Shown here in pieces: positions 14,714-50,510 of a stretch of DNA of 64,000 nt. How positions within the stretch are numbered: position 1 is the first letter of the stretch; the number at the start of each line of letters is the position of its first letter. A model generated the notes under the pieces. The model did not search any database. It had not been told where the DNA came from and saw nothing but the letters and a program-made list of their open reading frames with translations. Source of the DNA: an uncultured virus (IMG/VR IMGVR_UViG_3300018080_000012) (taxonomy: Duplodnaviria > Heunggongvirae > Uroviricota > Caudoviricetes); the IMG/VR virus record IMGVR_UViG_3300018080_000012; one strand, given 5' to 3'. Both the position numbers and the translations under genes were made by a program.

Positions 14714-15214
14714 TTAATATTGATCTTCTTCAAAATCATATATTTCTTTTAAATCGTTATAATTTATACCATATTTATTCAATATAGTATTTATTTTTTT
14801 TATTTCATCTTTTGATTTTTCAGAGCTAAAACCTATTGTAGAAAAAGTTCCAAAATCTTTTCCATTTATTTTAATTTTTTCTATTCCTTGAAATTCTTCT
14901 ACAATTATTTTAATATTATCTTTTTTTAATGTAGTAGTAGTAACAGATGTAGGATCTGCCATTCCGACTACTTTACTAGTTGTATTAAAATCCCATCCTT
15001 TTGATTTTAATTTATTCAATCTTTCTCCTTTTTCTTTCTTATCTTTTGATTGTTTATCAGATACTAGTTTTCCTGTCTTTGTATCTTTGTACCAGTATTT
15101 ATAGTTACCTTTAACACCAGTACGTTTGACGTACTTAGCTTTCATTAAATCACCACCTTCAGTGACTGCGTTTGATTTGAAAAATCCATCATCATTTAAA
15201 AAAGGTTGTTTCAT
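14714..15214 (-). CDS. Tagged putative virion-cargo protein (leader A plus tag C)
   Basis: MKQPFLNDDGFFKSNAVTEGGDLMKAKYVKRTGVKGNYKYWYKD, shared with genes at 42-48 kb. Confidence 0.65.
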   Translation of the reverse strand: MKQPFLNDDGFFKSNAVTEGGDLMKAKYVKRTGVKGNYKYWYKDTKTGKLVSDKQSKDKKEKGERLNKLKSKGWDFNTTSKVVGMADPTSVTTTTLKKDNIKIIVEEFQGIEKIKINGKDFGTFSTIGFSSEKSKDEIKKINTILNKYGINYNDLKEIYDFEEDQY

Positions 15215-32369: not shown

Positions 32370-33842
32370 TTACAGATCAAGTAAAGGATTTCTAATTGCT
32401 TGATTTACACCTACGTTTTTAAATAATACATAACGTAAAGGTGCATACCATTTAGGTACAACATAGAAATTAACTGTACCCCATCTGTAAGGAGCGATCT
32501 TTGCATATTCTACCTTATGAATAGGAGCCAATTGTGAAAGAGACATAGTTCTAAGTTCTCCAGCAACTGTATTATCAAGTAATACAGACTGTGAAGTACC
32601 GGGAATCTCTTCATTCTTATCTTGATATGATGCGGCTGCTGCCGTTACCGTTGTCAGATATCTAAAAACACCTGACGCGGGAGATGTTTCACCATAAATT
32701 TCATAAGCTGTAGGTGCATAAGGTCCGCCACCAGATGTTATAGTAATTGTCAAAGCTCCACCAGCTGCAACTGTTTTTACAGTTGTTGCTGCACAAGCTG
32801 CTGATTTACCATATTGATTGATGGCTGAGACTCTATATTGATAATCGCCTGCAATTCTTCCACCACTACCAGAAGCTGCCCATAATGAACCCACAACTGT
32901 AGGAGCATTTATTGCTACTGAAGCTGAAGGTGTTGCGGGAGCTTTTGTTGATGTTGCACCTTCTATTAAAGTAGAAGGAGTTGATGGATCTTTAATTTTA
33001 GGAACGCCTTGAGCTTCAACACTTAAGAAAATATCAGGCTTTAAATTGAAGTTCCCAAAAGCTGTCCTCATCTGTGTCACCGCGTGTCCAAGAGCAAGCA
33101 ACCCGCTTGTTGCAGAAACTGCTTCTACATTAATACGAGCATTGTTTGCTGTTGTACTCAATAACTGATCTATAGAAGTCTGTACAGCAAGTGAATTATA
33201 CATGTCAGTTGGAACACCAAAATTAGCTGCAATTATTTCTGCTCCATCTCTCATGTTTGCTTCTGTAATTGTTGAACCTCTAAGATCTATAACGTGATCA
33301 GTCGAACCGTTATTCTTAATTGTCTTAATAATACCATCAAATGACTGAGGTACCATCGTACTATCACCATAGAATAAATTCTTTTCAGTTGTTCTAAGAG
33401 CTCTCATCATAGCTGCCTGTACTGAAAGAACTTCTGCATTAGAAATTGTTTTGACATACGGTAATACATCAGAAACTTTCCAAAGCGTTCTCACATACTT
33501 AATGACAGCGTAAGCTCTTCGAAAATCAGGATCTCCTTCTTCTGGGTTTTCCATCTGACTTACAAAACCGCCTTCTGTTCCATATCCGTCCTGAACTGAA
33601 TATTCTTCAAGAGTACTATAAGCTTTTGTTATACCTATATCCTTAAAGAGTTTTAAATGCTTTTCCTGAAATGTAAGCATTGCTAACGTACTTTCAAGAG
33701 ATTGCATCTGGAGAGCTCCACCTTGATTAAGTGCAGCGATATCAGTCACGCCTTCCTGAGCTTGAAGGGCTTTAACTAAATCATTAACTTCAGCAAGAGA
33801 GGATTCTCCATAGCCTTCAAACATTTGTTCACGAAAATCCAT
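32370..33842 (-). CDS. Major capsid protein precursor (SPO1/A511/Twort-type)
   Basis: DLVK|AL...GGAL..QSLE..L.MLT, FYGD, FDG, VIDLRG, D.NE.IPGT, LAP, AP....FKNV. Confidence 0.92.
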   Translation of the reverse strand: MDFREQMFEGYGESSLAEVNDLVKALQAQEGVTDIAALNQGGALQMQSLESTLAMLTFQEKHLKLFKDIGITKAYSTLEEYSVQDGYGTEGGFVSQMENPEEGDPDFRRAYAVIKYVRTLWKVSDVLPYVKTISNAEVLSVQAAMMRALRTTEKNLFYGDSTMVPQSFDGIIKTIKNNGSTDHVIDLRGSTITEANMRDGAEIIAANFGVPTDMYNSLAVQTSIDQLLSTTANNARINVEAVSATSGLLALGHAVTQMRTAFGNFNLKPDIFLSVEAQGVPKIKDPSTPSTLIEGATSTKAPATPSASVAINAPTVVGSLWAASGSGGRIAGDYQYRVSAINQYGKSAACAATTVKTVAAGGALTITITSGGGPYAPTAYEIYGETSPASGVFRYLTTVTAAAASYQDKNEEIPGTSQSVLLDNTVAGELRTMSLSQLAPIHKVEYAKIAPYRWGTVNFYVVPKWYAPLRYVLFKNVGVNQAIRNPLLDL

Positions 33843-33843
33843 A

Positions 33844-34587
33844 TTAATTCACCTCCTGTTTTGATATATTACTTTTAATCAAATTAAGAGTATCGGGCTG
33901 AAGTGATTTCAGATCATACCCAGATAACTCATATTTAGTAATCTCGGCAGAATCTACTGAACCTTCCTGAACTGCTTTCATGAGTATTCCTTTAACAGCC
34001 TTTTTTGAAGGCATATTAATTGAATCTTCATTAAATCCAGATTTTTCTAATACATCTTCTTTTGTTATTTTACCTTTTACTCTGTTTGGAGTATTACTGA
34101 TCCCTTCTACTTCTTCTGAAATTGATTTAATCAATTCAGTTGAAGATTCAAAAGTTTCAGCAATACTTTTTTGAAGATCGTTTGCTTCTTCCTGTGATTT
34201 TTTTAAATCACTAATCTCTTCTTTCAAACCTCCAATCTCGTCGATTGCAGTTGAAAGAACATCAATAAATGATTTAAGAACAGGAACAGCATCAATAACT
34301 TCTTCATTATCGGCAATCGTTTCTTTTAAAGATTTTTCAACTTTAGAACTTTCTTCTTCTTCTTCCTCATCTTCGTCTTCTTCGTCATATTCTTTCATAT
34401 AATTCTTGATTTTCTTTCTCATTTTTTCACTTTTTAAAAGCTCTTTGATCTCGCTATGAGATTTAGATTTAATAAGATCTCCCATCTTTTCAAGATTTTC
34501 ATCAAGAGTCTTTTTTAAATCTTTTTCTTCAGAAGACTGATCTTCCTGAGGAGCGGTTGTGGAATCAATTTTTTCCTTATCGCCCAT
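33844..34587 (-). CDS. Scaffold-like protein
   Basis: Acidic coiled coil between protease and MCP, with many hydrophobic-x-K-S/A sites (LIKS x3, LLKS, VEKS, LKKS, LQKS, LEKS, LMKA). Confidence 0.7.
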   Translation of the reverse strand: MGDKEKIDSTTAPQEDQSSEEKDLKKTLDENLEKMGDLIKSKSHSEIKELLKSEKMRKKIKNYMKEYDEEDEDEEEEEESSKVEKSLKETIADNEEVIDAVPVLKSFIDVLSTAIDEIGGLKEEISDLKKSQEEANDLQKSIAETFESSTELIKSISEEVEGISNTPNRVKGKITKEDVLEKSGFNEDSINMPSKKAVKGILMKAVQEGSVDSAEITKYELSGYDLKSLQPDTLNLIKSNISKQEVN

Positions 34588-34602
34588 AATATTTACCTCC
34601 TC

Positions 34603-35514
34603 TTAAAATGTTAATTTAGCTATTGAAGCACTATTTGTTGCAATTAGCTTTATAATTTCTTCGGCTTCTTCTTTATTGAAGCCTTTATCTTCAAAATATT
34701 TTTGATAATCTGAATAATTTCCTTTTAAATTACCTGAGACAAGACTATCCATAATGAATGGAATTGCATTTCTTATTTTTCTATAATCAACGTTTTTCTT
34801 TTTCTTATCCCCTTCAATAGATTGCATTTGAACAGCTTGTCCACCAGAAAGATTTGCTATATTTGTAACGCTCCCTGCTTCTAAAGCTTTATTTAAAAAT
34901 TCTACATCAGAAAATGATTTTAAGAATTCATCATAAGACGAAAATTGTATTTCATAGTTCTCATCTCCATTAAATGACTTTATTAAACTTACTGAAGTTT
35001 CTTGGTGAACAGCTTTCTGCAACGGAGTGATAGCGATATGTTTGAGACTTATCTTAGAAATTGAATTTATTTTTTTCTTCGTAGCTTTATCTACATCAGA
35101 AGATTTTTGTAATATTTTCCCACCCAAAGAAGCTCCAAATATTTTACTTCCATTTCTTAATGCAGGCATTATTGCATTGTCTACATAAGGATTCCCTTTA
35201 AAAAGAAAACCGTGACATACGGGTACTCCTCTCTCTGAATCTATAAACAGTTTCTGAGGCTCACCAATTATTGCAGTCGCTCTTTCTACTGGAGTACTTC
35301 CTAAAATAGAAATATGATCATAGTCTATTACACCATCATAAATGAAAGATTTTATACAATCATCATCAAAAGCTTTTAAAAGTATTTTATCATTTACTCT
35401 ATCTATTGTAGGCTTGTTTGGAATAATTTCGACTGGTATTCTTCCATTTGTTTCTTCTCCAGTCTTTTTAATTAAAGCAGGAAATGAAAATTGATTTAAT
35501 TCCATATTCTCCAT
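34603..35514 (-). CDS. Prohead protease
   Basis: DR.ND.I, G.IDYDH, IIGEP, GASLGG (catalytic Ser), IAIT..AVH..T. Confidence 0.85.
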   Translation of the reverse strand: MENMELNQFSFPALIKKTGEETNGRIPVEIIPNKPTIDRVNDKILLKAFDDDCIKSFIYDGVIDYDHISILGSTPVERATAIIGEPQKLFIDSERGVPVCHGFLFKGNPYVDNAIMPALRNGSKIFGASLGGKILQKSSDVDKATKKKINSISKISLKHIAITPLQKAVHQETSVSLIKSFNGDENYEIQFSSYDEFLKSFSDVEFLNKALEAGSVTNIANLSGGQAVQMQSIEGDKKKKNVDYRKIRNAIPFIMDSLVSGNLKGNYSDYQKYFEDKGFNKEEAEEIIKLIATNSASIAKLTF

Positions 35515-35703: not shown

Positions 35704-36261
35704 TCATTTATTTTTATTTTCATTTTGTCCCCTCATAATCCAAACATAAGGCAAATCATCTCTTATATCTGGAAAAAACTGTCTATAATATTTTGGATCC
35801 TTTCTGACGAGATTACTCTTGTGGCTATCAGTAAATACCAAACTATGTATCCATAAAGGAAAATCAACATGACCGTTTATATTCTCATATTCCATATTAT
35901 TTTTAAACCCTCTTGACATCCATACTGATAAACAAATATTATAATATAATTTCAAAGCATTTTCATAATTATACCACATTTTTACTATAGGATGATTTAT
36001 ATAACCAAGCTTTTTTATTTTGCCACCACATATTTTTGATAATTCCACATTAATAATATCATTTAATTTTACAGAAATACAATATGATTTTTTTTCTCTA
36101 TATATAGCTCCACATTTATTACATTTATATTCATACCTATTTTTTTTATTTTTTATTATATTCAATATTTGCTTAGCCTCTACTCTCTGTTTTCCAAGCC
36201 TCTTATTATCAAGTATAGAAATAGATTTATAAAAATCTGAATATGGTAAGAATGTCTGCAT
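35704..36261 (-). CDS. Pyrimidine-dimer DNA glycosylase family (MSMEG_6728/DenV-like)
   Basis: MQTFLPY, LD.KRLGKQRVE..QI, HP.VKMW, SH.SNL.RKD..YY, LPYVW. Confidence 0.85.
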   Translation of the reverse strand: MQTFLPYSDFYKSISILDNKRLGKQRVEAKQILNIIKNKKNRYEYKCNKCGAIYREKKSYCISVKLNDIINVELSKICGGKIKKLGYINHPIVKMWYNYENALKLYYNICLSVWMSRGFKNNMEYENINGHVDFPLWIHSLVFTDSHKSNLVRKDPKYYRQFFPDIRDDLPYVWIMRGQNENKNK

Positions 36262-39949: not shown

Positions 39950-40133
39950 TATATATAATCCTCAAACCTATTAATTGATCTTCTTTATAATCAAAAGTTC
40001 CATTCGTATCTGACAATAAATGAACTTTATATATTCTACCCTCTTTAGTTTCTTTTATATTCACAACGTGCCCAATTCTATAATGACCTATAATCCTAAC
40101 ATATTCATTTAATTTTATTTTTGTTTTTTCCAC
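39936..40133 (-). CDS. Small SH3-like beta-barrel protein
   Basis: VRI.G..RIGHVVNI...YKV...Y.EDQL pattern. Confidence 0.45.
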   Translation of the reverse strand: MEKTKIKLNEYVRIIGHYRIGHVVNIKETKEGRIYKVHLLSDTNGTFDYKEDQLIGLRIIYNAKN

Positions 40134-43100
40134 TTTCCTTCCTTAAAACTTTTTTCCATATATGGAAGAATTTTTGTATCATTTTCTAATACAGTTATTT
40201 TTATTCCTTTCTTTTCTAAATGACTTTTTAGAATTTTGATATATTCCTTGTAATCTTTTGCTTGATTCATTTTGTCAGCAAATTTTTTATCAGTATCTTC
40301 AAGCTCTGTCATTAATCTTTCAGCTCCTAAATTTCCAATAATAACTTCAGCAAACATACTCGTAGGCACAAAACTTGGAAGATGCCCCTCATACTTTCCA
40401 TGAGACTGTCTATTTAAATAATCATTTATACTCCCTTGAGCTGCTATATCTTTAGCCATATATTCGTAATATTTAGGATTCTCTTTAGCATTAAGTTTTG
40501 ATTTATTAAAATGAATATTTCTATCTTCTTGTCTTGGTTGTATAATTTGTTTTAATTCGACATTAAACATTCTTTCAAAATCTCTAAAGCTCTCTGTATA
40601 GATTTTCCCAATATTTTCTTTTTTGCCAGCACCCAGTTTTCCTTTAGCATTTATATATTTTATTTCTAATTCATCATTACCTTCATCTATCTTAATGATT
40701 TTGAATGTATATTTATCTTCTTGAAATTCATCTCCAACTTTATATCCTCTTTTTTCTTTTGTCCATTCTCTATGATCATACATTTCCCCACTATAAAAAC
40801 TAGTCCCAGCTACTGGCGTCATATTAAAATCTGGATGTTCCATTATCTCAGGCTTTAATATTATACTTATTTCTCCGTATCCACTACCATTTCCGTTTGG
40901 ACCAAGTATACTAAAGACATGTTTATTTGTTCCTAACTCTTTATCTACCTCATACCCTATAGCACCCGTCTCTATTTCTTCCCAATTATCGTATAATTTA
41001 TTTAAGATTTTTGCTAAACGTCCTCCTTTCTTTACATCATAATTTCCACCAAGAAATTTAACAAGATTTGCTCTTGTTCCAGCTATCTTTCCAACATCAT
41101 TTATCTCCTTGTATATTTTCTCAGTTATTTCATCACCAAATTCTGGTCTTATCTCACTTTCAACTATTGCATATCCAGCTTGCTTTCCACTCTCTCCCAA
41201 TTGTTCTAACGATTTCAACCCTCCACTTTTCAATACTCTTATAAACTTTTCTGCTGATAAACTATGTACTGGAGTAAGATTTTTAGCAAAATCTTCTAAT
41301 ACTTCAAGATGACTCATTTCATGAAGTATTTGTTTTCTTTCTTTAAGTCTTTCTTCTTTATTTTTTAGTACACGTTTAAGTTCATCACCTTTAATTTTTT
41401 TCATTGAATAATCTTCATGCCAATAAGTTTTATTTTTAATTGCATTTTTTATATCAGCAATTTGTATTTTATAATGGCTATAAAGTTTTTCATGACCTTG
41501 ATAGATAGAAGAATTCTTATATGAATATTCTTTAATTTCATCATTCAAGAACTTCTCATTAGCTTTAAAATCTATTCCTTTATTCAATCCCTTTACTGGA
41601 ATTTGTTCTAATAAAAATTTTTCTTTTTTTGTTTCTGATTTCTTTTCTTTTATTTCTCCTACAAATTTCCAGGTCTTATTACCGACCTTTTTAAACTTTC
41701 CACCCTTCCAATTTCTCACTGTCCCTATAGGAAGAGTTTTAGCTTTAAGAAAGTTATTTTTATCTGATATTCTTAATTGAAATTTAGACTTTTTTAATTT
41801 TTTTTTATTGATTCTTTTAAATACTTCTATTTCATTTTTATTTAAATAAAGATATGCTATATATCTATGTAATCCATCCATTATTTTATTATTTTCATCT
41901 ACAACAATTGGATGTAATTTTATACCATTTTTTATTTTATCAACTAACGAATGAATTATACCAAGAGATTCTTCTGCATCAGGATCATCAATATAATCGT
42001 TATAAGTTAAATTACTTTCTATGTCGTTTATATTTACTTTTTCTTTTATAAATTTATCATTTTTTTCTGAATCAAATATAATATTCGCAGATTTAACACC
42101 TTCAGACATAATATTTTCTACTTCTTTTAGTGTAAATTGTTTCTTATTTTCATCTTTTAAATCTTCTATTTCATCTTTTACATAATCTACAATTTCTTTT
42201 TTTGTTTTAAATCTTTTACTCCATTCATGATCATTTCCTTCTTTCTTATTAGTAACATATAAATCCCATGTATTTTTCTCGTCTGTTCTTTCTATATGAA
42301 AAGTTGTATCTTTAAATTTTACTTCATATTCTCCAAAATCTATTTTTTTTATTTTAATGCTTTCTTTTTCGTTTGTTGTTAATTTTCCTGTCTTTGGATC
42401 TTTGTACCAGTATTTGTAATTTCCCTTAACCCCAGTTCTTTTAACATATTTATGATTTCTAGATTTAAAAAATAAAGATTTCTTTAATTTTTTTTTATAT
42501 ATCCCCTTTATATATTGTGCTGGAATTTTACTGAAATTATATTCTGATGGATCGTCAATATCATATCCTTTTGATTCTTTAAAATCAAAATTTTCAGCAT
42601 CATTTAATGGAATCTTTATATATAAAATCGTATCTGGCCCATAAGACTCTGCGAATTCAAAATTATCTGTCAAACTAATATCTTCTTGTCCTACACTCCC
42701 AGATATTATTCCAGTTTCAGACGATGGTAATAACCCTTCTTTTAATATTTTATCTTTATTTTTCTTTGATGTTCCATGAAAAGCTCCAATATATTTTACT
42801 CCATTTTCTTCAAACATTCCTGATCTTGGTAAATTATAATAATTAAATTCTTTAAGTTTCTTTTCTATTTTTTGCTCTTCTTTTACAGGTACCCACTTAC
42901 CTTCGGCTACTTTTTTCAATCCAGTCTTCTGGCTTATGTAACCTATTGGATACTTTTTAGCTTTAAAAAAATATAAGCCTGTTGATTTCTGTAATTTCTC
43001 TTTATTTAAAATATCTTCTATTATAAGATATCCTTCAGGACAATAATTTTTTAATACTGTTTCATAAGCTTCATCGATTATTTTTCCTGAAATATACCAT

Positions 43101-43501
43101 TTAAATAATGTAGCTAATATCTCTTTCTCTTCTGAATATACATGATCATTAATAAATATTCTACCATCACCATTATTTTTTTGAAGCTTCTTCTTAAGAT
43201 CTTTTAGTTTTATTTTTGTTAAAGATCTTAAATCATCATATCTACAAATCTGATGTGCAAATTCATGAATGAAATCTCCTCTCCAATCAGAAGTAGATTC
43301 ATAAATGATTATTATGCCTTCATCATATTCAGCTCTAATATCATTTTTTTTATTAATGTCTTTATATAAATGAATAATTATAGGATTTTTTAATTTTATA
43401 TATTGTTCAAGCTTCTCCACGACATCTCTCAGTTCACCATCGAGTGCCTGGTAGCGTTCATTTGACCAGCCCATATTATCTATATACAATTTTACATTCA
43501 T
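40115..43501 (-). CDS. Polyvalent protein: zincin-like metallopeptidase, ART-like, ParB/Srx-like, second ART-like domain
   Basis: HEFAH; FHGTS..ILKEGL..LT...A.SYG; PIVVD...DGLHR; VH.....VLKSGGLKS...VF...YG...EGHLP; domains separated by paired K|S/A sites and tags. Confidence 0.75.
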   Translation of the reverse strand: MNVKLYIDNMGWSNERYQALDGELRDVVEKLEQYIKLKNPIIIHLYKDINKKNDIRAEYDEGIIIIYESTSDWRGDFIHEFAHQICRYDDLRSLTKIKLKDLKKKLQKNNGDGRIFINDHVYSEEKEILATLFKWYISGKIIDEAYETVLKNYCPEGYLIIEDILNKEKLQKSTGLYFFKAKKYPIGYISQKTGLKKVAEGKWVPVKEEQKIEKKLKEFNYYNLPRSGMFEENGVKYIGAFHGTSKKNKDKILKEGLLPSSETGIISGSVGQEDISLTDNFEFAESYGPDTILYIKIPLNDAENFDFKESKGYDIDDPSEYNFSKIPAQYIKGIYKKKLKKSLFFKSRNHKYVKRTGVKGNYKYWYKDPKTGKLTTNEKESIKIKKIDFGEYEVKFKDTTFHIERTDEKNTWDLYVTNKKEGNDHEWSKRFKTKKEIVDYVKDEIEDLKDENKKQFTLKEVENIMSEGVKSANIIFDSEKNDKFIKEKVNINDIESNLTYNDYIDDPDAEESLGIIHSLVDKIKNGIKLHPIVVDENNKIMDGLHRYIAYLYLNKNEIEVFKRINKKKLKKSKFQLRISDKNNFLKAKTLPIGTVRNWKGGKFKKVGNKTWKFVGEIKEKKSETKKEKFLLEQIPVKGLNKGIDFKANEKFLNDEIKEYSYKNSSIYQGHEKLYSHYKIQIADIKNAIKNKTYWHEDYSMKKIKGDELKRVLKNKEERLKERKQILHEMSHLEVLEDFAKNLTPVHSLSAEKFIRVLKSGGLKSLEQLGESGKQAGYAIVESEIRPEFGDEITEKIYKEINDVGKIAGTRANLVKFLGGNYDVKKGGRLAKILNKLYDNWEEIETGAIGYEVDKELGTNKHVFSILGPNGNGSGYGEISIILKPEIMEHPDFNMTPVAGTSFYSGEMYDHREWTKEKRGYKVGDEFQEDKYTFKIIKIDEGNDELEIKYINAKGKLGAGKKENIGKIYTESFRDFERMFNVELKQIIQPRQEDRNIHFNKSKLNAKENPKYYEYMAKDIAAQGSINDYLNRQSHGKYEGHLPSFVPTSMFAEVIIGNLGAERLMTELEDTDKKFADKMNQAKDYKEYIKILKSHLEKKGIKITVLENDTKILPYMEKSFKEGKWKKQK

Positions 43502-43503
43502 TA

Positions 43504-43962
43504 TTATTTTAAATTTTCTCTTGCTTTATCTAACTCTTTCTTTAAAGTCTTAAAGCTGTTATCAGTTATTTCAAAATAATCTTTTATTTCTTCATTTGTT
43601 ATATCAGAAAGTTTTCCTTCTTTTACACCAATTCCATCAACATCAAATTTAAATGTACCGTCTTTCTTTATTATAAAATTACCAGAATTGCCGTGTCCAC
43701 TTACATTATTTAATTTACCCTCAAAACCATTATATTTTTCTTTTTTTTGTACTGGCAATGGATCTTCAGTTTTCTTTTCTTTTTTATATGGAGAAGTTTT
43801 AAATCCTTCCTTCAATTTATGTGTCTTAGGATCCATGTACCAATATTTGTAGTCGCCCGGGACTCCAGTCCGTTTGATATACTTTGCCTTCATAAGATTT
43901 CCACTGTCATAAATTGCGTTTGATTTAAAAAATTCTTCATCATTTAAAAATGGTTGTTTTAT
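43504..43962 (-). CDS. Tagged putative cargo protein (leader A plus tag C), probable ATA start
   Basis: AGGAG-N7-ATA AAA CAA CCA TTT TTA AAT = (I)KQPFLNDEEFFKSNAIYDSGNLMKAKYIKRTG, in frame with track ORF 43504-43893. Confidence 0.7.
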   Translation of the reverse strand: MKQPFLNDEEFFKSNAIYDSGNLMKAKYIKRTGVPGDYKYWYMDPKTHKLKEGFKTSPYKKEKKTEDPLPVQKKEKYNGFEGKLNNVSGHGNSGNFIIKKDGTFKFDVDGIGVKEGKLSDITNEEIKDYFEITDNSFKTLKKELDKARENLK

Positions 43963-43976
43963 TGTTTTTCTCCTAT

Positions 43977-45269
43977 TTAAATTTTATATACCACCTTATT
44001 AATTGAACTGTCCCATTCCTCTACTGTAGGATCAATTTCGGACCAATAGTGAATACATTGCGGATGGGCAGGAATACATATCCACCAATTGGCTCCATTT
44101 CTCCCCACATTATTTTTACCGCGCCATATAGCATATCGAGCGTGTGGGTCGTTTATTTCATCATCGCTTAATGGCTTATCTACATACTTTACTATTGTCC
44201 CTAACCAATTAATACATTGTTTTGATGATGTTGGTATTATACCCCCTGAAAAAACAAAATACGTACTTTTGCCTTCTTTCTTTTTCTGTTGATTTACAGC
44301 TTCTAAGTATCCGTTATTTAATGCGTATGAAATTTCTGTTATACTCACTCTCCTCCAATCTCTGTTTATTGCGTCAATTGTTTTTTGTGAAAATCTTCTT
44401 CCAAGTTCATCTGTAGGATCTATCCAGAATAATCTTTGTGTTAATTCTTGAGCTGTCAACCCATCCTCTAACCCGCCCGTTATTTGTTCTCTAACTAATT
44501 TAACTATTTTGTTTTTTAGACTTCCGTCTTCTATTGCAAGATGTTCTGCAGCGTGTTGTTTTGAATATTCAATTGCTGCAATTTCTGGGTCAGACAGGTT
44601 AAATTTCTTTACTGCATCTTCTGTATTATCAGGAATATAACCATACCTTGATTCAACATCGTCATGCGACATTTTCTTTTGTTCGTCAATTGGAATCCCA
44701 TCTTCTTCCATTACTTGCATTAGTTTTCCCATTAAACCTGCTTTTACAACAAGCTCTTCTTCTAATGTCCCTATTTTATCTCCTAGAAAATCTACAATTT
44801 CTTTTGTCAAATTATTCCATTCTTCTGTCGTTAATGGCATTCCTGTTTCTGGGTTATATTTTAGTTTTCCTTTTATATTTAATGGTTGTAATGGCTTTCC
44901 TTTATTGAACCCAAATTTCTTAAAGAAGTTCTTTGCTATAGTGAATTTCTCTTTTAAATTAGAAAAAAGAGATTTATAAAACAAAGCATTTTCGATCTCT
45001 TCACCATTAGCAGCTTTTTGAAGAATATCTAATGAAACTTTAACAGATTTTTGCATTATATTAGAAGGATCTACATTCAACTTTAATCCAACACCAATTG
45101 CTATTTGTTTGAATACATCCTGAACATATTCCATCAATGCTTCTTGATATTCTCTTACCCATCTGAAATCACTTAATTCTGCTTTAGTTATTTCTTTATC
45201 GGCTTTAATTAAAAGTGATTGTATTTCCCATTCTTTATTTTGTAAATGATTTGGTATAAATAATTTCAT
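43977..45269 (-). CDS. MuF/SPP1 gp7-like head morphogenesis protein
   Basis: RDWRRVSITE...A.N.G, conserved Cys, IPAHPQC.H.W; downstream of portal. Confidence 0.75.
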   Translation of the reverse strand: MKLFIPNHLQNKEWEIQSLLIKADKEITKAELSDFRWVREYQEALMEYVQDVFKQIAIGVGLKLNVDPSNIMQKSVKVSLDILQKAANGEEIENALFYKSLFSNLKEKFTIAKNFFKKFGFNKGKPLQPLNIKGKLKYNPETGMPLTTEEWNNLTKEIVDFLGDKIGTLEEELVVKAGLMGKLMQVMEEDGIPIDEQKKMSHDDVESRYGYIPDNTEDAVKKFNLSDPEIAAIEYSKQHAAEHLAIEDGSLKNKIVKLVREQITGGLEDGLTAQELTQRLFWIDPTDELGRRFSQKTIDAINRDWRRVSITEISYALNNGYLEAVNQQKKKEGKSTYFVFSGGIIPTSSKQCINWLGTIVKYVDKPLSDDEINDPHARYAIWRGKNNVGRNGANWWICIPAHPQCIHYWSEIDPTVEEWDSSINKVVYKI

Positions 45270-46711
45270 TATTCACTTCGACCATGTCTTTGTTCTTTTT
45301 TAATAACTTCTTCTTGTTTATAATTATATAAAAAATCTTTTACTTTATCTTTATCAAATTCTTTAGATAATTCTTTTTTCAGATATTTATCAATCGTATC
45401 TTGATCTGCTTCATGAGGTTCTAATCCACTAAACAAAACAAATTCATCAACTATATTCTTTTCGTCTTGTTTTGATAATTTCTTTTTACTTTCAAATAAA
45501 ATTTTCTGTTTTTCTTTTATTTGTTGTATTGCTTCTCTTTGTTGTTTCTGAAAATTAGCTATTGATTTTTTACTTGCTTCTGGCCAAATTTTTGCAGCAT
45601 TAACAACATTGCTTTCCATCTCTTTTATTTCTTTATCATAAGCATCCATTTCTTGTTTTGTTTTATTTTCTTCTTTTAACCCGTTATTTAAATCTTTAAT
45701 CTCCACTTTATTTATAATACTACCATCTTCCCATTTTACTTTCAATGTTCCATCATTATTGTTTTTAATAACTACTCCCTTATCGATTAATCCCGGCTCA
45801 AAACTTATTTCAACAGAATCTCCTTTTTTATAATCTTTTGTTTTTTTCTTTAAATTTACTTCTTTTGATTTTATTGAATTTATAAATTCTTTTTTATTCA
45901 TTCTAACCGGTTCACTGTCTTTATCAGTTATAAACTGAACAAATTTATCACCTTTTTTCGTAATTTTTATTTTATCATTCTTACGTATTATTACTGATTT
46001 TCCACTTCTAGTTACTACATTAATATCTTTTTTTAACGGTATAAAATCTTTCTTCTTAACTTTTAATTTGCCATCTTTTATGTCAGCACTAATAGTTTCT
46101 TTCTCTACTTGTTTTCCTATTTTCTCTTTCTTAATCGGTATCCACAAACCTTCTTTAACTTTCTTTCTACCCTTACTTACTGTGCCTATAGGCATCTTCT
46201 TTCCTTTGATTAATATTAAACTTCCATCATTTTTATTTGCTAATAGAACTCCCATTCTATCACCTCCTAACGATTTAATCATGCTTCCTTTCCATTTATC
46301 TGAAAATATTTTTTCTTTAAACTCATCCATTCCCATTTCTGTCATGCTACCAAAAAACCCCGGTCTATCGTATTGATTCATATACGCTTTCTTCGCTTCA
46401 TCTGCTGAATTAAAACCCACCATGACTTTATCTTCGTCGTACTGTCTCGAAACTGGATCGTTCTGATGTACGATGTAAACAACGTCACTGTTTTTATTAT
46501 TCCCGATATACGCATCCAAATGCTGTTTATCTTTTCCAATGGTTCCTTTTATATATCCATAAGGATAATGCATTTTAGTTTTCCATTCGCGACCATCTTT
46601 ATCTGTTCCAGATCGAACAGAGCCTTTTTTGTTCTCTATAGAAATATCTAGACCATTTATCTTTGTTCTTCCTTGAAGTTTATATCCTGAAAATGTTAAT
46701 GATTTTTTCAT
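45269..46711 (-). CDS. InPase-family domain fused to a tag-B basic protein
   Basis: GLDISIEN.KGS.RSG.D.DG..W...M...YGYI.GT.G.D..HLD.YIG, YDEDKVMVGF.S..EAK.AY; internal SD+ATG at 46255. Confidence 0.8.
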   Translation of the reverse strand: MKKSLTFSGYKLQGRTKINGLDISIENKKGSVRSGTDKDGREWKTKMHYPYGYIKGTIGKDKQHLDAYIGNNKNSDVVYIVHQNDPVSRQYDEDKVMVGFNSADEAKKAYMNQYDRPGFFGSMTEMGMDEFKEKIFSDKWKGSMIKSLGGDRMGVLLANKNDGSLILIKGKKMPIGTVSKGRKKVKEGLWIPIKKEKIGKQVEKETISADIKDGKLKVKKKDFIPLKKDINVVTRSGKSVIIRKNDKIKITKKGDKFVQFITDKDSEPVRMNKKEFINSIKSKEVNLKKKTKDYKKGDSVEISFEPGLIDKGVVIKNNNDGTLKVKWEDGSIINKVEIKDLNNGLKEENKTKQEMDAYDKEIKEMESNVVNAAKIWPEASKKSIANFQKQQREAIQQIKEKQKILFESKKKLSKQDEKNIVDEFVLFSGLEPHEADQDTIDKYLKKELSKEFDKDKVKDFLYNYKQEEVIKKEQRHGRSE

Positions 46712-47051: not shown

Positions 47052-47546
47052 TTATTTTATTTTTCTATAAATAAATTGATATATGTCGTTGCTTTCAAAA
47101 CCATCTTCTACTAAATCAGCGAATATACCATTAACAGCTTTACTAAATTTATCATAATCATTTTCATTCACTAATCCTCTCATTCTATCATATCTACCGC
47201 CCGTAGGAGTTCTCATTGCTGTACTAACAAGAAATCTTAAAATGTCTACTCGTTCAAATCCTTCTTTATCTAAATCCTTTAATATAGCATTTGAAGATTC
47301 TTTAAGATCTTTTAAATCTTTTATTTTTGAAAGACCTTCCATTCTCTGTTCAGGTTTTAATATCTCACCATTTACTTTAGAATCTTTTTTTTCGTTCTTT
47401 ACTGGTACCCACTTACCTTCGGCAACTTTTTTGTAACCTTTAGATACTGTACCTATTGGCATCTTTTTAGATTTCATTAAGTTGCCACCCTCGTCAATCC
47501 CCACTGATTTGAAAAAATCACTATCATTTAAAAATGGCTGTATCAT
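47052..47546 (-). CDS. Tagged putative cargo protein (leader A plus tag B), duplicated helical C-terminal unit
   Basis: QPFLNDSDFFKS...EGGNLMKSKKMPIGTVSKGYKKVAEGKWVPVK; DL.KEGFE..DI..FL / DL.EDGFE..DI..FI. Confidence 0.65.
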   Translation of the reverse strand: MIQPFLNDSDFFKSVGIDEGGNLMKSKKMPIGTVSKGYKKVAEGKWVPVKNEKKDSKVNGEILKPEQRMEGLSKIKDLKDLKESSNAILKDLDKEGFERVDILRFLVSTAMRTPTGGRYDRMRGLVNENDYDKFSKAVNGIFADLVEDGFESNDIYQFIYRKIK

Positions 47547-47896
47547 TTTTTTCCTCCATACTCTCTAATGTATTTCATAAAACCTGACTTCTCTTCTTTT
47601 CTAATTTCTTTAAGTGCATCATTAAGTTTCATTTCGTTCTTTAAAACTTTATGTGCTAATTTATGTGCTTCATCAGATATTTCGAATTCTTTTTCTTCTT
47701 CAACGGCTTCTTTTGATCCTAACTTCTCCATCTTTTCTCTATTACCTCCCGGGCCTGTTCCATCTTGTGGACCGCCTTGTGCTCCGATAGGATTTCCACC
47801 ACATCTTCCTTTTTTACTTTTAATTAAATTGCCACCTTCATCCATTTCAGTATTTTTAAAAAAATTGTCATCGTTTAAAAATGGTTGTTTATTCAT
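47543..47896 (-). CDS. Tagged putative cargo protein (leader A)
   Basis: QPFLNDDNFFKNTEMDEGGNLIKS then GPQDGTGPGG. Confidence 0.6.
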   Translation of the reverse strand: MNKQPFLNDDNFFKNTEMDEGGNLIKSKKGRCGGNPIGAQGGPQDGTGPGGNREKMEKLGSKEAVEEEKEFEISDEAHKLAHKVLKNEMKLNDALKEIRKEEKSGFMKYIREYGGKK

Positions 47897-48111: not shown

Positions 48112-48867
48112 TTAAAACTCCTTTAAAAACTGAATAAATTCTTGCCATATTTTAGATTTAGCGAGAAATTCTTTTGCAATCGGTTTTATATGTTTATTGA
48201 CTAATTTTGTTATATTCGCTTTTGATGTCTTTGTTAATCTTGAAATAGAAGCTTTATTATAACCTTGCAACATGTAATCTAAAATCTGTTTTGCTTCTTT
48301 GCTTTTTATTCTTTCTTTCATCAATTCTATATTTCTCTTAAATTCAACTTCTTCTATATCTTTCTTTTGTCTTGGATCTTCTACAATCTCTTCTATTCCT
48401 TTAGAAGTCTCTTCTTCTTTAGAAGAAAATGAAGATATATACGCATCTCTATCTAATCCTTTCATTTCTTTTGCTATTCCTTTGAATATATATCCTGTCA
48501 TATAGCTTCTTACATAAGATAAAAAAGCTTTTGAAGATTTTTTTACATTAAATTTATCTATAGCTTTTATAAAGCCTATATTTGCATTTTGAACTGAGTC
48601 ATCTACATTTTTTATTTTTGACATTATTCTATTAATAACATCCCTAACGAATACTTGATTTTGTGTTATAAATTCATTCCTTAATTCTATATCTTCTTTA
48701 AGTTTTTTTATATCTTTAGAAGAAATAACATCAAGTCTTAATTTGTTTTCTTTTTTACTTATAGATACCCACTTTCCTTTACTTATTTTTTTCAATCCAG
48801 TCTTTTGACTTATATGCCCTATAGGATATTCTTTTGATTTCTCTAATTTCAATATCAATTTTTTCAT
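48112..48867 (-). CDS. Sigma70-family sigma factor carrying tag B
   Basis: Region 2 RNEFI..N..FV...DDSVQ.A.IGFIKAIDKF...FLSY; region-4 HTH GY....IS.....SKANI; N-terminal LEKSKEYPIGHISQKTGLKKISKGKWV. Confidence 0.8.
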   Translation of the reverse strand: MKKLILKLEKSKEYPIGHISQKTGLKKISKGKWVSISKKENKLRLDVISSKDIKKLKEDIELRNEFITQNQVFVRDVINRIMSKIKNVDDSVQNANIGFIKAIDKFNVKKSSKAFLSYVRSYMTGYIFKGIAKEMKGLDRDAYISSFSSKEEETSKGIEEIVEDPRQKKDIEEVEFKRNIELMKERIKSKEAKQILDYMLQGYNKASISRLTKTSKANITKLVNKHIKPIAKEFLAKSKIWQEFIQFLKEF

Positions 48868-50510
48868 GGTAAGATCTCTATATAATCTTGTTTTGATTTT
48901 TCAAATTTAAATTCTTCTTTGGGTTGTTCTTTTTCTTTAGGTGTTTCTTCTATATCTTCTTCAGGTTCTTCACCAAATTCATTTCCAACACTCATCCCTC
49001 CTTGCATCTCACTCATCTGTTTCATTTGTTGTGCTTGTAGAAAGTTTGGATTATTAATTATATCTCCACCGTCTATAGGCTTAAGATCTTTTTCTTTTCT
49101 CTTTTCATTTATTGTCATATATACTTGTGTTTGTTTCTCATCTACATTAAGTTCTGCTAATTGATCTTTAGCTTCTATTCCAGTGAATTCCATTCTATAA
49201 GGATCCCATTCTGGTACTCTTTCAATTATCTTATTAAGAATACTTTGAACGAAAGCTAATATATCTTTTAACCCTCGATCTCTACTATAAGTTATTTCAT
49301 TTTGTCTATTTTCATATAATGTAGCTTGTGTTCTATTAAATCTTAAACCTAATTCTGCTGGGTCTATTCCGTGAATCGCACATATCCATGAAGCTAATGT
49401 CTGTGTATATTCATTGAACTCCATATCTCTATTCGGAGGAGCTATTGGTATCCATTTTGCGTTGTGCTGCAAAAATGGAGTTCTCCACATTCCTTTTACG
49501 CCTCGAAACATTGATATCCATTGTCTTTGAAGTTCTTCTAAATCACCTTGTTCAATTTTCTCTCCTTCGAAAGAAATTACTCCTTTAGGCTGTGAAGACG
49601 AATTAAATATCTCTTTATTATATGCCATTGCAAATAGCCAAGCAGTTATCATATCGAGAGACATTTCAATGTAAGAATATCCATATCCTCTTTGCCTTAT
49701 GTCTGTTCTTCTATTCATAAAATAAAATATTAGATCATCTTTTGTGAATGTCTCTACAAACCTTCCATTTACTTCTTGTACGAATGCAATACTTTTGTCT
49801 CCCTGAAAACCCTTGTCTTTCATCGTCCTTTTAATCGTAGCAGCATCTAATATCCAATAATCTAATATTTTATTTTTTTTATTTCTTCTAAGACTTATAG
49901 CTACTTGATCAATAGTCATCATTTCTCTTGTAATCAATTCAACAACATCTGATAAACCTTCTTCTCTTTCATCTGCACCCTCGAAGTTAGTATATCCAGA
50001 ATATAATAAAAACTCTTCAATCTCTTTCATTATTTTTTCATCTTTCTTAGAAGGCGTTCCTTTTTTATCTTTCAATTTAACCCTAAACCCAACATCGTCA
50101 TCATTATAACTTGTTTCAGAAAAAGGTCTTATCTGCATACATCTTACATTTTGTATTGTACTTATTGGAGCTGTTCTTTGAGCTATTTGTCTAAGTATTC
50201 TAAACGATAAATGAAAGAATTTTTCTCTTACTCCATGAATGCCGTATCCCCATTCTGCCATCCATTCTGCTGGCTCTATCATTCCTTTTGGAGCATTTAT
50301 CGCGCCATTCCCTTTTCTATTTTGTTTATAAAATAATAAATCATTTTGATAACTTTTTAAAAAATCAATCTGTTGAAGTCCTGCATTCTCTATAGCTTTT
50401 AATTTTGCTAATTCGTGAATTGTCTGAGGCTGTGAATCAGAAGAAATATCGTTTTTAATATTGAAAGCTTCTTTAAACTTTCTTTCGCCTAATGAAGATA
50501 AAGACAACAT
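48864..50510 (-). CDS. Portal protein
   Basis: TIDQV, LDAATI, GYGYS.IE, YN..IF....PKG, RDMEF, IDPAELG, MTINE.R...L.PIDGGD.I.NP. Confidence 0.92.
   Translation of the reverse strand: MLSLSSLGERKFKEAFNIKNDISSDSQPQTIHELAKLKAIENAGLQQIDFLKSYQNDLLFYKQNRKGNGAINAPKGMIEPAEWMAEWGYGIHGVREKFFHLSFRILRQIAQRTAPISTIQNVRCMQIRPFSETSYNDDDVGFRVKLKDKKGTPSKKDEKIMKEIEEFLLYSGYTNFEGADEREEGLSDVVELITREMMTIDQVAISLRRNKKNKILDYWILDAATIKRTMKDKGFQGDKSIAFVQEVNGRFVETFTKDDLIFYFMNRRTDIRQRGYGYSYIEMSLDMITAWLFAMAYNKEIFNSSSQPKGVISFEGEKIEQGDLEELQRQWISMFRGVKGMWRTPFLQHNAKWIPIAPPNRDMEFNEYTQTLASWICAIHGIDPAELGLRFNRTQATLYENRQNEITYSRDRGLKDILAFVQSILNKIIERVPEWDPYRMEFTGIEAKDQLAELNVDEKQTQVYMTINEKRKEKDLKPIDGGDIINNPNFLQAQQMKQMSEMQGGMSVGNEFGEEPEEDIEETPKEKEQPKEEFKFEKSKQDYIEILP

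Follow-up and report, generated by a model that had tools for sequence, protein, structure and literature searches.

The window analysed here is the whole 64,000-nucleotide stretch of DNA from an uncultured virus of the Caudoviricetes (IMG/VR record IMGVR_UViG_3300018080_000012). It is a single strand-uniform myovirus block of low GC content (23-35% per 4-kb block), with genes for the portal, the capsid, the tail sheath and the baseplate. We studied a minus-strand open reading frame (ORF) that is open from 40115 to 43501 and encodes P0001, a protein of 1128 amino acids (aa). The identical protein is present in two IMG/VR records, and its 90% cluster occurs on eight contigs. P0001 resembles the polyvalent proteins, which are thought to be the main route by which phages and plasmids deliver anti-defence and takeover enzymes together with their DNA. 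The published account so far of how such proteins are loaded and separated is a proposal of self-cleavage. The locus offers a concrete alternative: a junction code of paired hydrophobic-x-Lys↓Ser/Ala sites (↓ marks the putative cut) that would be read by the head maturation protease, combined with portable header tags.

Modules, joints and tags of P0001

An earlier note on this ORF, made from the DNA sequence alone, had proposed four modules separated by double protease sites. This layout holds: the paired sites lie where they had been placed, and the modules have independent homologues, three of them with assigned folds. In the order of the protein, the features are:

42986..43501, minus strand: module 1, residues 1-172, predicted zincin metallopeptidase with HEFAH at 79-83, without leader or tag, ending in LQK172
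42962..42985, minus strand: spacer of junction 1, STGLYFFK, residues 173-180, between K172↓S and K180↓A
42872..42961, minus strand: tag B, residues 181-210, AKKYPIGYISQKTGLKKVAEGKWVPV, also in four other places in the window, in database proteins and on 24 other viral contigs
42479..42871, minus strand: cargo of module 2, residues 211-341, FHGT...ISLTDNFEFAESYG, possible H-Y-E type ADP-ribosyltransferase (ART)
42464..42478, minus strand: spacer of junction 2, SLFFK, residues 342-346, between K341↓S and K346↓S, like the MRLVFFK↓S and MKLVFFK↓S leaders of stand-alone relatives
42383..42463, minus strand: tag C, residues 347-373, SRNHKYVKRTGVKGNYKYWYKDPKTGK, also in the ORFs at 43504-43962 and 14714-15214
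42179..42382, minus strand: module 3a, residues 374-441, small domain without assigned function (phrog_2287, E 3.6e-4), with a stand-alone homologue of 95 aa (P0053)
41789..42178, minus strand: module 3b, residues 442-571, predicted ParB/Srx-like domain with DGLHR at 542-546, ending in LKK571
41744..41788, minus strand: spacer of junction 3, SKFQLRISDKNNFLK, residues 572-586, between K571↓S and K586↓A
41663..41743, minus strand: tag B', residues 587-613, AKTLPIGTVRNWKGGKFKKVGNKTWKFV, present in four copies in P0072
40118..41662, minus strand: module 4, residues 614-1128, helical region and predicted SopF/DarT/CopC-like ART fold, with a conserved core at residues 845-917

Each joint carries two sites: LQK172↓S and FFK180↓A at joint 1 (nucleotides ~42962-42992), LKK341↓S and FFK346↓S at joint 2 (~42464-42487), and LKK571↓S and FLK586↓A at joint 3 (~41744-41797). 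The pattern L.K[SA] has three matches in all of P0001 and the pattern [FY][FL]K[SAN] has three, which together make the three pairs. The wider motif [LIVMFY]xK[SA] has ten matches, six of which fall within the three junction windows (68 of the 1128 residues). The binomial probability of these six is ~8e-6, and none of 20,000 shuffles reached six (maximum four). The other four (residues 756, 998, 1090 and 1115) lie in helices of the module 4 model, in 10-residue blocks with a mean predicted local distance difference test (pLDDT) score of at least 72, mostly above 90.

The earlier note had expected the domain boundaries to fall at the K↓S/A linkers. The three joints do fall where the HMMER homology blocks of database relatives end, and the AlphaFold2 (AF2) model has pLDDT <50 at residues 175-183, the stretch in which joint 1 lies. 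The spacer of junction 3 is kept as K(I/L)EKSKY(N/D)KIYSD(K/N)KNLLK[AS] in P0003 and P0008. Internal translation starts at the joints were considered as the cause of the modules and ruled out, because the Leu codons of L(Q/K)KS are TTA. One claim did not survive: each enzyme was said to carry its own tag, and module 1 has neither tag nor leader.

Homologues of P0001 and exchange of modules

A HMMER search of 1.84 billion representatives gave 261 matches at E ≤ 1e-3, and we re-aligned the 149 matches listed. Among these, the blocks of P0001 are found separately and in other orders. The block of residues 2-175 also occurs internally in proteins that reach 1788 aa, where an InPase domain is often its neighbour, and residues 448-565 make a separate homology block. 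The blocks that contain the tags (residues 170-219, 341-398 and 571-629) are present in two to four copies in P0056, P0058, P0072, P0125 and P0127. The last block covers residues 611-1126, and its core (845-917) is the best-matching stretch for most of the 150 matches listed.

On L007, a related contig, the syntenic P0008 consists of module 1, tag B, a ParB domain, tag B' and a Zeta-toxin-like domain. Module 4 is split there (L007:9473-12219): its helical N-terminal half ends a 608-aa ORF with two tag-B copies and a THEISH motif, and its ART half is a separate 299-aa ORF (P0012). Cassette exchange has therefore taken place exactly at the joints. As judged from their homologues, the four modules are real evolutionary units that recombine freely at these joints.

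The end of module 1 matches hydrophobic-x-K[SAG] in 24 of 27 homologues, and 16 of the 27 have at least two matches. What follows module 1 varies (a tag, an InPase domain or a HAD domain), with the end motif retained. Paired sites are also found at untagged joints, with the InPase or HAD domain directly next, in P0002, P0017 and P0029.

Folds and families of the modules

Pfam gave no family for P0001 at E ≤ 1 except a chance Sec_GG match, and hence none of the curated polyvalent families (MPTase-PolyVal, ART-PolyVal, LPD). NCBIfam and direct PDB sequence searches gave nothing usable. The homologues of P0001 carry InPase, ART-PolyVal, RadC, SNF2 and Zeta_toxin domains.

The AF2 model of module 1 has pLDDT >90 across most of residues 1-170. 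Foldseek matched it with PPEP-3, PPEP-1 and anthrax lethal factor (LF) (probability 1.0, E from 3e-4). VIA against all of PDB placed LF first (Z 10.6, 158 aligned residues, rmsd 3.7), with PPEP-3 (10.5) and PPEP-2 (10.3), and its top rows were nearly all HExxH zincin metallohydrolases, mostly peptidases (plus YbeY-type). H79, E80, H83, H120, E127 and K172 are nearly invariant in 18 sequences. We take E127 to be a zinc ligand and H120 to stand in place of LF Tyr728. The structural model thus identifies module 1 as a zincin metallopeptidase with an LF/PPEP-like fold, as proposed from its HEFAH motif, which is present at residues 79-83. A profile of module 1 compared with PDB had a sole match, portal chain 9b41_L, which came from InPase columns contributed by long homologues and is uninformative on module 1. 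These columns match residues 631-735 of 9b41_L (gp19 Portal) with E 8e-20; this solved portal therefore has an InPase-like C-terminal domain.

Module 2 has a sole clear homologue, P0013 (29% identity, E 2e-9); a word-index search for further ones returned P0001 itself and one tag-only match. The PARP family of Pfam matches both proteins under its 26.7-bit cut-off (E 0.017 in the window, 0.019 in P0013), and Tpt1 has E 0.06. The lead from a language-model atlas is PARP/Arr (0.92-0.93). The AF2 model has pLDDT <50, so the ART fold proposed in the earlier note is not settled by structure; the sub-threshold PARP matches and the PARP/Arr lead speak weakly for it, and module 2 is a likely but still putative small ART.

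Module 3 ends in a ParB/Srx domain by the evidence of its profile. The predicted DGLHR motif is present, and D-G-x-H-R is kept in all 14 sequences of the alignment. The profile of module 3b matched Noc (E 0.0027), SbnI (0.007) and plant sulfiredoxin (0.0097), and ParB/Srx proteins made up 12 of the 13 listed rows. ParB_N of Pfam matches three of the 14 members, and the window's own is not among these.

Module 4 has a mean AF2 pLDDT of 83.8. The nine best VIA rows were all ARTs, led by SopF (Z 11.6, 221 aligned residues), DarT (10.9, 173 of 209 aligned, rmsd 3.6) and CopC (10.8); the next row had Z 8.3 and lay on a coiled coil. Foldseek alone was weak (E 7e-3), as were all rows of a BFVD fold search (best E 1.1e-3). 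The conserved residues are D853, T858, F863, G867, Y875, G876, H889, P890, D891 and W913, and homologues of the core lie in large proteins with PARG, PBZ or ART domains. By its predicted structure, then, module 4 contains a SopF/DarT/CopC-like ART fold, which agrees with the second ART-like fold of the earlier note. The helical part of the module has a second HExxH string, HEMSH (residues 727-731; 41309-41323, minus strand), which is probably there by chance.

The motif of the joints in the head proteins

The head genes of the window include:

32370..33842, minus strand: major capsid protein of the SPO1/Twort type (phrog_752, E 1.6e-84), with the site DLVK24↓A
33844..34587, minus strand: acidic scaffold-like protein, with 10 motif matches
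34603..35514, minus strand: prohead (head maturation) protease, matched by tblastn to annotated head/capsid maturation proteases, with seven motif matches in its C-terminal part
48864-50510: portal

The best cultured relatives of the capsid protein are those of Bacillus SPO1-like phages (identity <30%), and it is homologous to SPO1 Gp6.1 (PDB 9vel, E 1.8e-36).

We compared motif counts with 2000 shuffles for each of the 69 ORFs of the window. The 10 matches of the scaffold stand against 1.45 expected, and 0 of 2000 shuffles reached 10 (p<0.0005). The seven of the protease stand against 1.61 (p 0.0005), which makes a 4-7-fold enrichment in these two proteins. A 430-aa ORF of the head block has six matches against 1.45 (p 0.003). 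The head block as a whole has 59 matches vs 23.6 expected, and the rest of the window 45 vs 37.9. In related loci, the scaffolds of five out of five have 9-11 matches vs ~2 expected (p at most 0.001), and two protease-scaffold fusions have 12 and 15 vs ~3.4. An apparent enrichment in the tape-measure protein (5 vs 0.77 by crude expectation) was set aside, the shuffled comparison (6 vs 2.98, p 0.08) not being significant.

In the alignment, the capsid site DLVK24↓A corresponds to ALNK↓A in SPO1 Gp6.1 (9vel) and to DVVK24↓S in the 463-aa chain 5lii_P. The 439-aa chain 9row_B, which is the same protein as 5lii_P, begins in its deposited sequence exactly at the Ser after that Lys. L22, K24 and A25 of the capsid protein are invariant in seven of seven related capsid proteins. 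The C-terminal part of the protease (FLK↓SFSDVEFLNK↓ALEAG...) contains both a paired site and a copy of the capsid N-terminus, and its residues 200-236 match residues 14-50 of SPO1 Gp6.1 (E 0.048). This mimicry extends over protease residues ~195-240 (FLK↓SFSDVEFLNK↓ALEAGSVTNIANLSGGQAVQMQSIEG, as against LVK↓ALQAQEGVTDIAALNQGGALQMQSLE in the capsid protein) and is likewise seen in L021, L023, L027 and L029; a possible function is the loading of the protease into the shell.

From these sequence patterns we conclude that hydrophobic-x-Lys↓Ser/Ala(/Gly) is, in all probability, the maturation rule of this head lineage, and that the joints of P0001 follow it. Given the enrichment in scaffold and protease, the invariant capsid site and the start of 9row_B, the prohead protease is the best candidate for the cutting, rather than the metallopeptidase embedded in P0001. 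In the competing explanation, the zincin of module 1 would cut the joints, in cis or in trans and before or after injection, with the prohead protease uninvolved. Module 1 is indeed well formed, having HExxH and, further downstream, a conserved Glu, the K172 with which it ends hardly varies, and the published model, in the available text of Iyer et al. 2017 (PMC5512222), gives processing to peptidase domains. Against this, the motif is enriched or invariant precisely in the classic substrates of prohead proteases, the motif-bearing leaders head many separate genes that have no peptidase, and AF2 places the linker after module 1 in disorder and not in the active site (weak evidence). We hold cutting by the zincin to be quite improbable.

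Tags and leaders on other genes

Tags or leaders of the kinds found in P0001 are present on at least seven other genes of the window phage, including:

48112..48867, minus strand: sigma-70-family protein starting MKKLILKLEK↓SKEYPIG... (tag B), with matches to Sigma70_r2 and to TIGR02937 (E 5.9e-15); adjoins the portal gene
47543..47896, minus strand: 117-aa ORF with the same leader as the 164-aa ORF, without tag B or C
47052..47546, minus strand: 164-aa ORF with the leader MIQPFLNDSDFFK↓S...LMK↓S, then tag B
45269..46711, minus strand: 480-aa ORF with MKK↓S, an InPase domain (PF18823, E 3.4e-44), LIK↓GKKMPIG (tag B) and a K/E-rich tail
43504..43962, minus strand: 152-aa ORF from an ATA start, with the full leader, then tag C
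14714..15214, minus strand: 166-aa ORF with leader and tag C in the tail/baseplate block, between tail ORFs of 209 aa and 630 aa

A 25-residue leader, (M)KQPFLNDxxFFK↓S..E.G.L.K↓[SA], is found on four ORFs of the window and five of L007, with F11, F12, K13, E19, G21, L23 and K25 invariant in eight of eight aligned sequences. In the ORF at 43504-43962, the ATA (43962) lies 7 nt after AGGAGA and the same ATA occurs in two other viral records; a call from ATG (129 aa) removes the conserved leader. The 166-aa ORF is conserved in L008-L010. In the InPase protein, MKK↓S directly precedes the domain, and in the polyvalent chain of the homologue P0002 a paired site precedes the same InPase domain. The sigma homologue in L007 starts MKLLLK↓AKKMPIG, and a third sigma, beside a polyvalent gene in L032, is untagged. 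The tagged sigma-70-family protein of the window may be a virion-delivered sigma factor.

Tag C is present once in P0011 and twice in each of P0058, P0125 and P0127. In the AF2 model of tag B', three short beta strands lie at model residues 9-12, 15-21 and 24-27 (block pLDDT 84-90). All eight tags of the window sit 3-6 residues after K-[SAG]. We scanned IMG/VR with tag patterns, which gave 27 loci, and read the 20 that lie outside the window's phage (L015 is on L007's contig). All 40 tag-B copies in these 20 loci sit 3-6 residues after K-[SAG], and a second site 10-14 residues upstream is common. Among the 110 ORFs scanned, the capsid or portal genes in range of the tag loci always belong to phrog_752 (six loci) or phrog_12 (five loci). 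A complex prediction of the mature tag B region with the capsid protein and the scaffold gave no answer (score 0.00, without controls) and speaks neither for nor against binding.

These observations bear on whether P0001 is cut at all. Its Lys-rich joints could be flexible linkers and its tags repeated small binding domains, the full chain being packaged and injected like the N4 virion RNA polymerase. Giant uncut virion proteins exist, N4 vRNAP among them (Iyer et al. 2017, PMC5512222, in its available text), the case for cleavage is built here on sequence comparison, and the K-[SAG] preceding each tag could be the tag's own. The paired sites are, nonetheless, also present at the untagged joints of P0002, P0017 and P0029, and the motif is identical to the maturation site of the capsid protein. 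Moreover, stand-alone relatives begin with MRLVFFK↓S, MKLVFFK↓S or MKLLLK↓A, and such leaders of 6-25 residues ending in the motif have no obvious use if they are not removed. We therefore regard an uncut P0001 as unlikely.

Gene context

The gene of P0001 sits between the portal gene (48864-50510) and those of the capsid protein, scaffold and protease (32370-35514), and beside the gene of the InPase protein. This domain type is described solely from phage polyvalent proteins in the available text of Iyer et al. 2017 (PMC5512222). One could also suppose that P0001 and the tagged proteins encoded near it stay outside the capsid throughout, as late proteins of the cytoplasm or associated with the tail, with a coincidental likeness of motif to the head proteins. 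Packaging is deduced from gene position, and one gene with leader and tag does lie among baseplate genes. The place of the P0001 gene between portal and capsid genes argues against this, as does the set of InPase, ART, ParB and zincin domains, typical of virion-borne polyvalent proteins. Genes of T4 alt-family ARTs also adjoin baseplate genes, yet Alt is packaged in the head (PMC5512222, available text). We give little credence to a life outside the capsid for P0001. The position of the 166-aa ORF (14714-15214) among baseplate genes recalls that of T4 alt.

Proposed processing and delivery

The explanation we favour, and consider probable with real room for doubt, is that P0001 is a phage-type polyvalent protein, loaded into the prohead and cut there by the phage's own maturation protease. 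We infer the following course. P0001 would be expressed late, together with the head genes, and incorporated into the prohead of a myovirus with an SPO1/Twort-type head. The maturation protease (ORF 34603-35514) would cut it after Lys in hydrophobic-x-Lys↓Ser/Ala, by the same rule by which it would trim the capsid protein, digest the scaffold and trim itself. The paired sites, 5-15 residues apart, may combine the site at the tail of one cassette with that of the short leader of the following one. Spacer peptides of 8, 5 and 15 aa would be set free by the cutting, along with four products: a zincin metallopeptidase of ~172 aa without a tag; tag B with the probable small ART (161 aa); tag C with the domain of unassigned function and the ParB/Srx domain (225 aa); and tag B' with the helical region and the SopF/DarT-like ART (542 aa). 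The tags, which are small, basic, beta-hairpin-like headers common to many cargo cassettes, would be retained at the mature N-termini and might load, hold or eject the cargo, and the products would travel into the host with the DNA. Separate release of the modules by proteolysis, as predicted, fits strong comparative evidence.

Several points weigh against this reading. We found no proteomic or biochemical data for the window phage or its relatives. Neither P0001 nor the tagged 164-aa ORF had a tblastn match among cultured phages, a search in which the low-complexity filter may hide the Lys-rich tag. P0001 carries its own metallopeptidase, the processing enzyme favoured in the literature. The motif could be partly compositional or helix-periodic in helical, Lys-rich proteins, the tape-measure protein has more matches than expected (p 0.08), and the start of chain 9row_B was taken from the deposited sequence and not from a paper. 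K-[SAG]-[KR]-[KR] may belong to the tag, which was never seen with a different preceding residue because every locus with a visible capsid gene had the same head type. Lastly, one tagged gene (14714-15214) lies in the tail block.

Beyond P0001, phages with SPO1-type heads may possess a general plug-and-play cargo system, an idea that we put forward tentatively and at less than even chances. An enzyme of any kind would turn into capsid cargo on gaining a cassette header, made of a short hydrophobic leader that ends in Lys↓Ser/Ala/Gly for the head protease and of a retained basic beta-hairpin tag (B or C), the tag being read by a conserved receptor (the capsid interior, the portal region or DNA) for loading and/or ejection. 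Cassettes would be joined into polyproteins or divided among genes at will, with cargo including ARTs, peptidases, ParB nucleases and a sigma factor, the last of which this locus points to as possibly virion-delivered. If the proposed code is true, the sequence would allow mature cargo proteins to be predicted across a large group of uncultured myoviruses, the shuffling of effector modules exactly at the joints would be explained, and the tags could be used to load foreign proteins into SPO1-type capsids.

Comparison with known systems

Polyvalent proteins were defined by Iyer, Burroughs, Anand, de Souza and Aravind (2017, PMC5512222), who in the available text describe two to 15 distinct effector-type domains per polypeptide and propose self-processing by peptidase domains. 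A 2022 survey by the same authors stresses, in its accessible part, head-packaged ARTs in myoviruses. Like these proteins, P0001 is a single chain with several effector domains of unrelated kinds (a zincin peptidase, ART and ParB); InPase is found in its neighbours and homologues. Like them also, it is encoded with head-packaging genes, and packaging, processing into units and injection are predicted. It has four modules with independent homologues and a late/packaging gene context, and the kinship with phage polyvalent proteins seen in the earlier note is upheld. Unlike them, it matches no polyvalent family of Pfam, its joints carry the head protease motif in pairs, and its cassettes begin with shared tags. 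The earlier note had also likened the release of its enzymes to that of a viral polyprotein. This analogy stands, having already been drawn in the available text of Iyer et al. 2017; what the note had missed is that the motif is apparently the head protease's own rule and that tags and leaders extend to other genes of the phage. Term searches of that text brought up neither a junction code nor header tags nor cutting by a prohead protease. We likewise found no published Lys↓Ser rule for SPO1/Twort-type phages, junction codes in polyvalent proteins or header tags in a literature search that included Felix O1, XM1 and Kayvirus papers, most subscription journals lying outside it. Relative to polyvalent proteins and to the capsid-targeted cargo of T4-like phages, the combination of a putative head-protease junction code in pairs with retained header tags thus appears to be new.

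In phage T4, the internal proteins IPI-III and Alt have a capsid targeting sequence that is removed by the prohead protease gp21. The resemblance is in the short N-terminal leader that ends in a head-protease site on unrelated cargo, in the presence of the same site in the capsid protein and scaffold, in a cargo that includes an ART, and in a cargo gene that can lie in the baseplate block. The putative cleavage motif of P0001 is also that of its phage's capsid protein and scaffold, and a common N-terminal leader is found on unrelated cargo, P0001 itself having none. The systems differ in that the cut would here be after Lys and before Ser/Ala/Gly, whereas in T4 it is after Glu. Here, too, sites are also internal and paired, joining modules, and tag B or C would stay on the product.

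In the giant phages SPN3US and phiKZ, ejection or inner-body proteins are cut at A/S/G-x-E by the prohead protease (PMC10052503, PMC7411985, available text). As in our proposal, the maturation protease processes many proteins inside the head, which are ejected afterwards. The protease specificity and head lineage are different, and the accessible text of these two papers mentions neither header tags in common nor cassette-like joints.

The capsids of SPO1/Twort-type phages (9vel Gp6.1; 5lii_P and 9row_B) are homologous to that of the window phage, and LVK↓A aligns with the start of the 439-aa chain. These entries cover the capsid protein only, and it is our proposal that extends the rule to cargo polyproteins. 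In HK97, the gp4 protease cuts gp5 at Lys103↓Ser104; the Lys↓Ser specificity of the prohead protease is thus alike, whereas HK97 is not known to carry cargo.

Other genes near the head genes

A pyrimidine-dimer DNA glycosylase (35704-36261, minus strand; Pyr_excise, E 5.7e-22) is encoded next to the prohead protease, towards the portal. The N-terminal ...SDFYKS... of this glycosylase is leader-like, yet is part of the enzyme domain (residue 1 is where the Pfam match begins). The 430-aa ORF with six motif matches (43977-45269, minus strand) belongs to phrog_3759 and has no assigned family. It gave no match of the MuF/gp7 type and occupies the usual place of such minor head proteins. Its C-terminus is Cys/His-rich, it is also present in L007, and all six motif matches lie in its first 180 residues.

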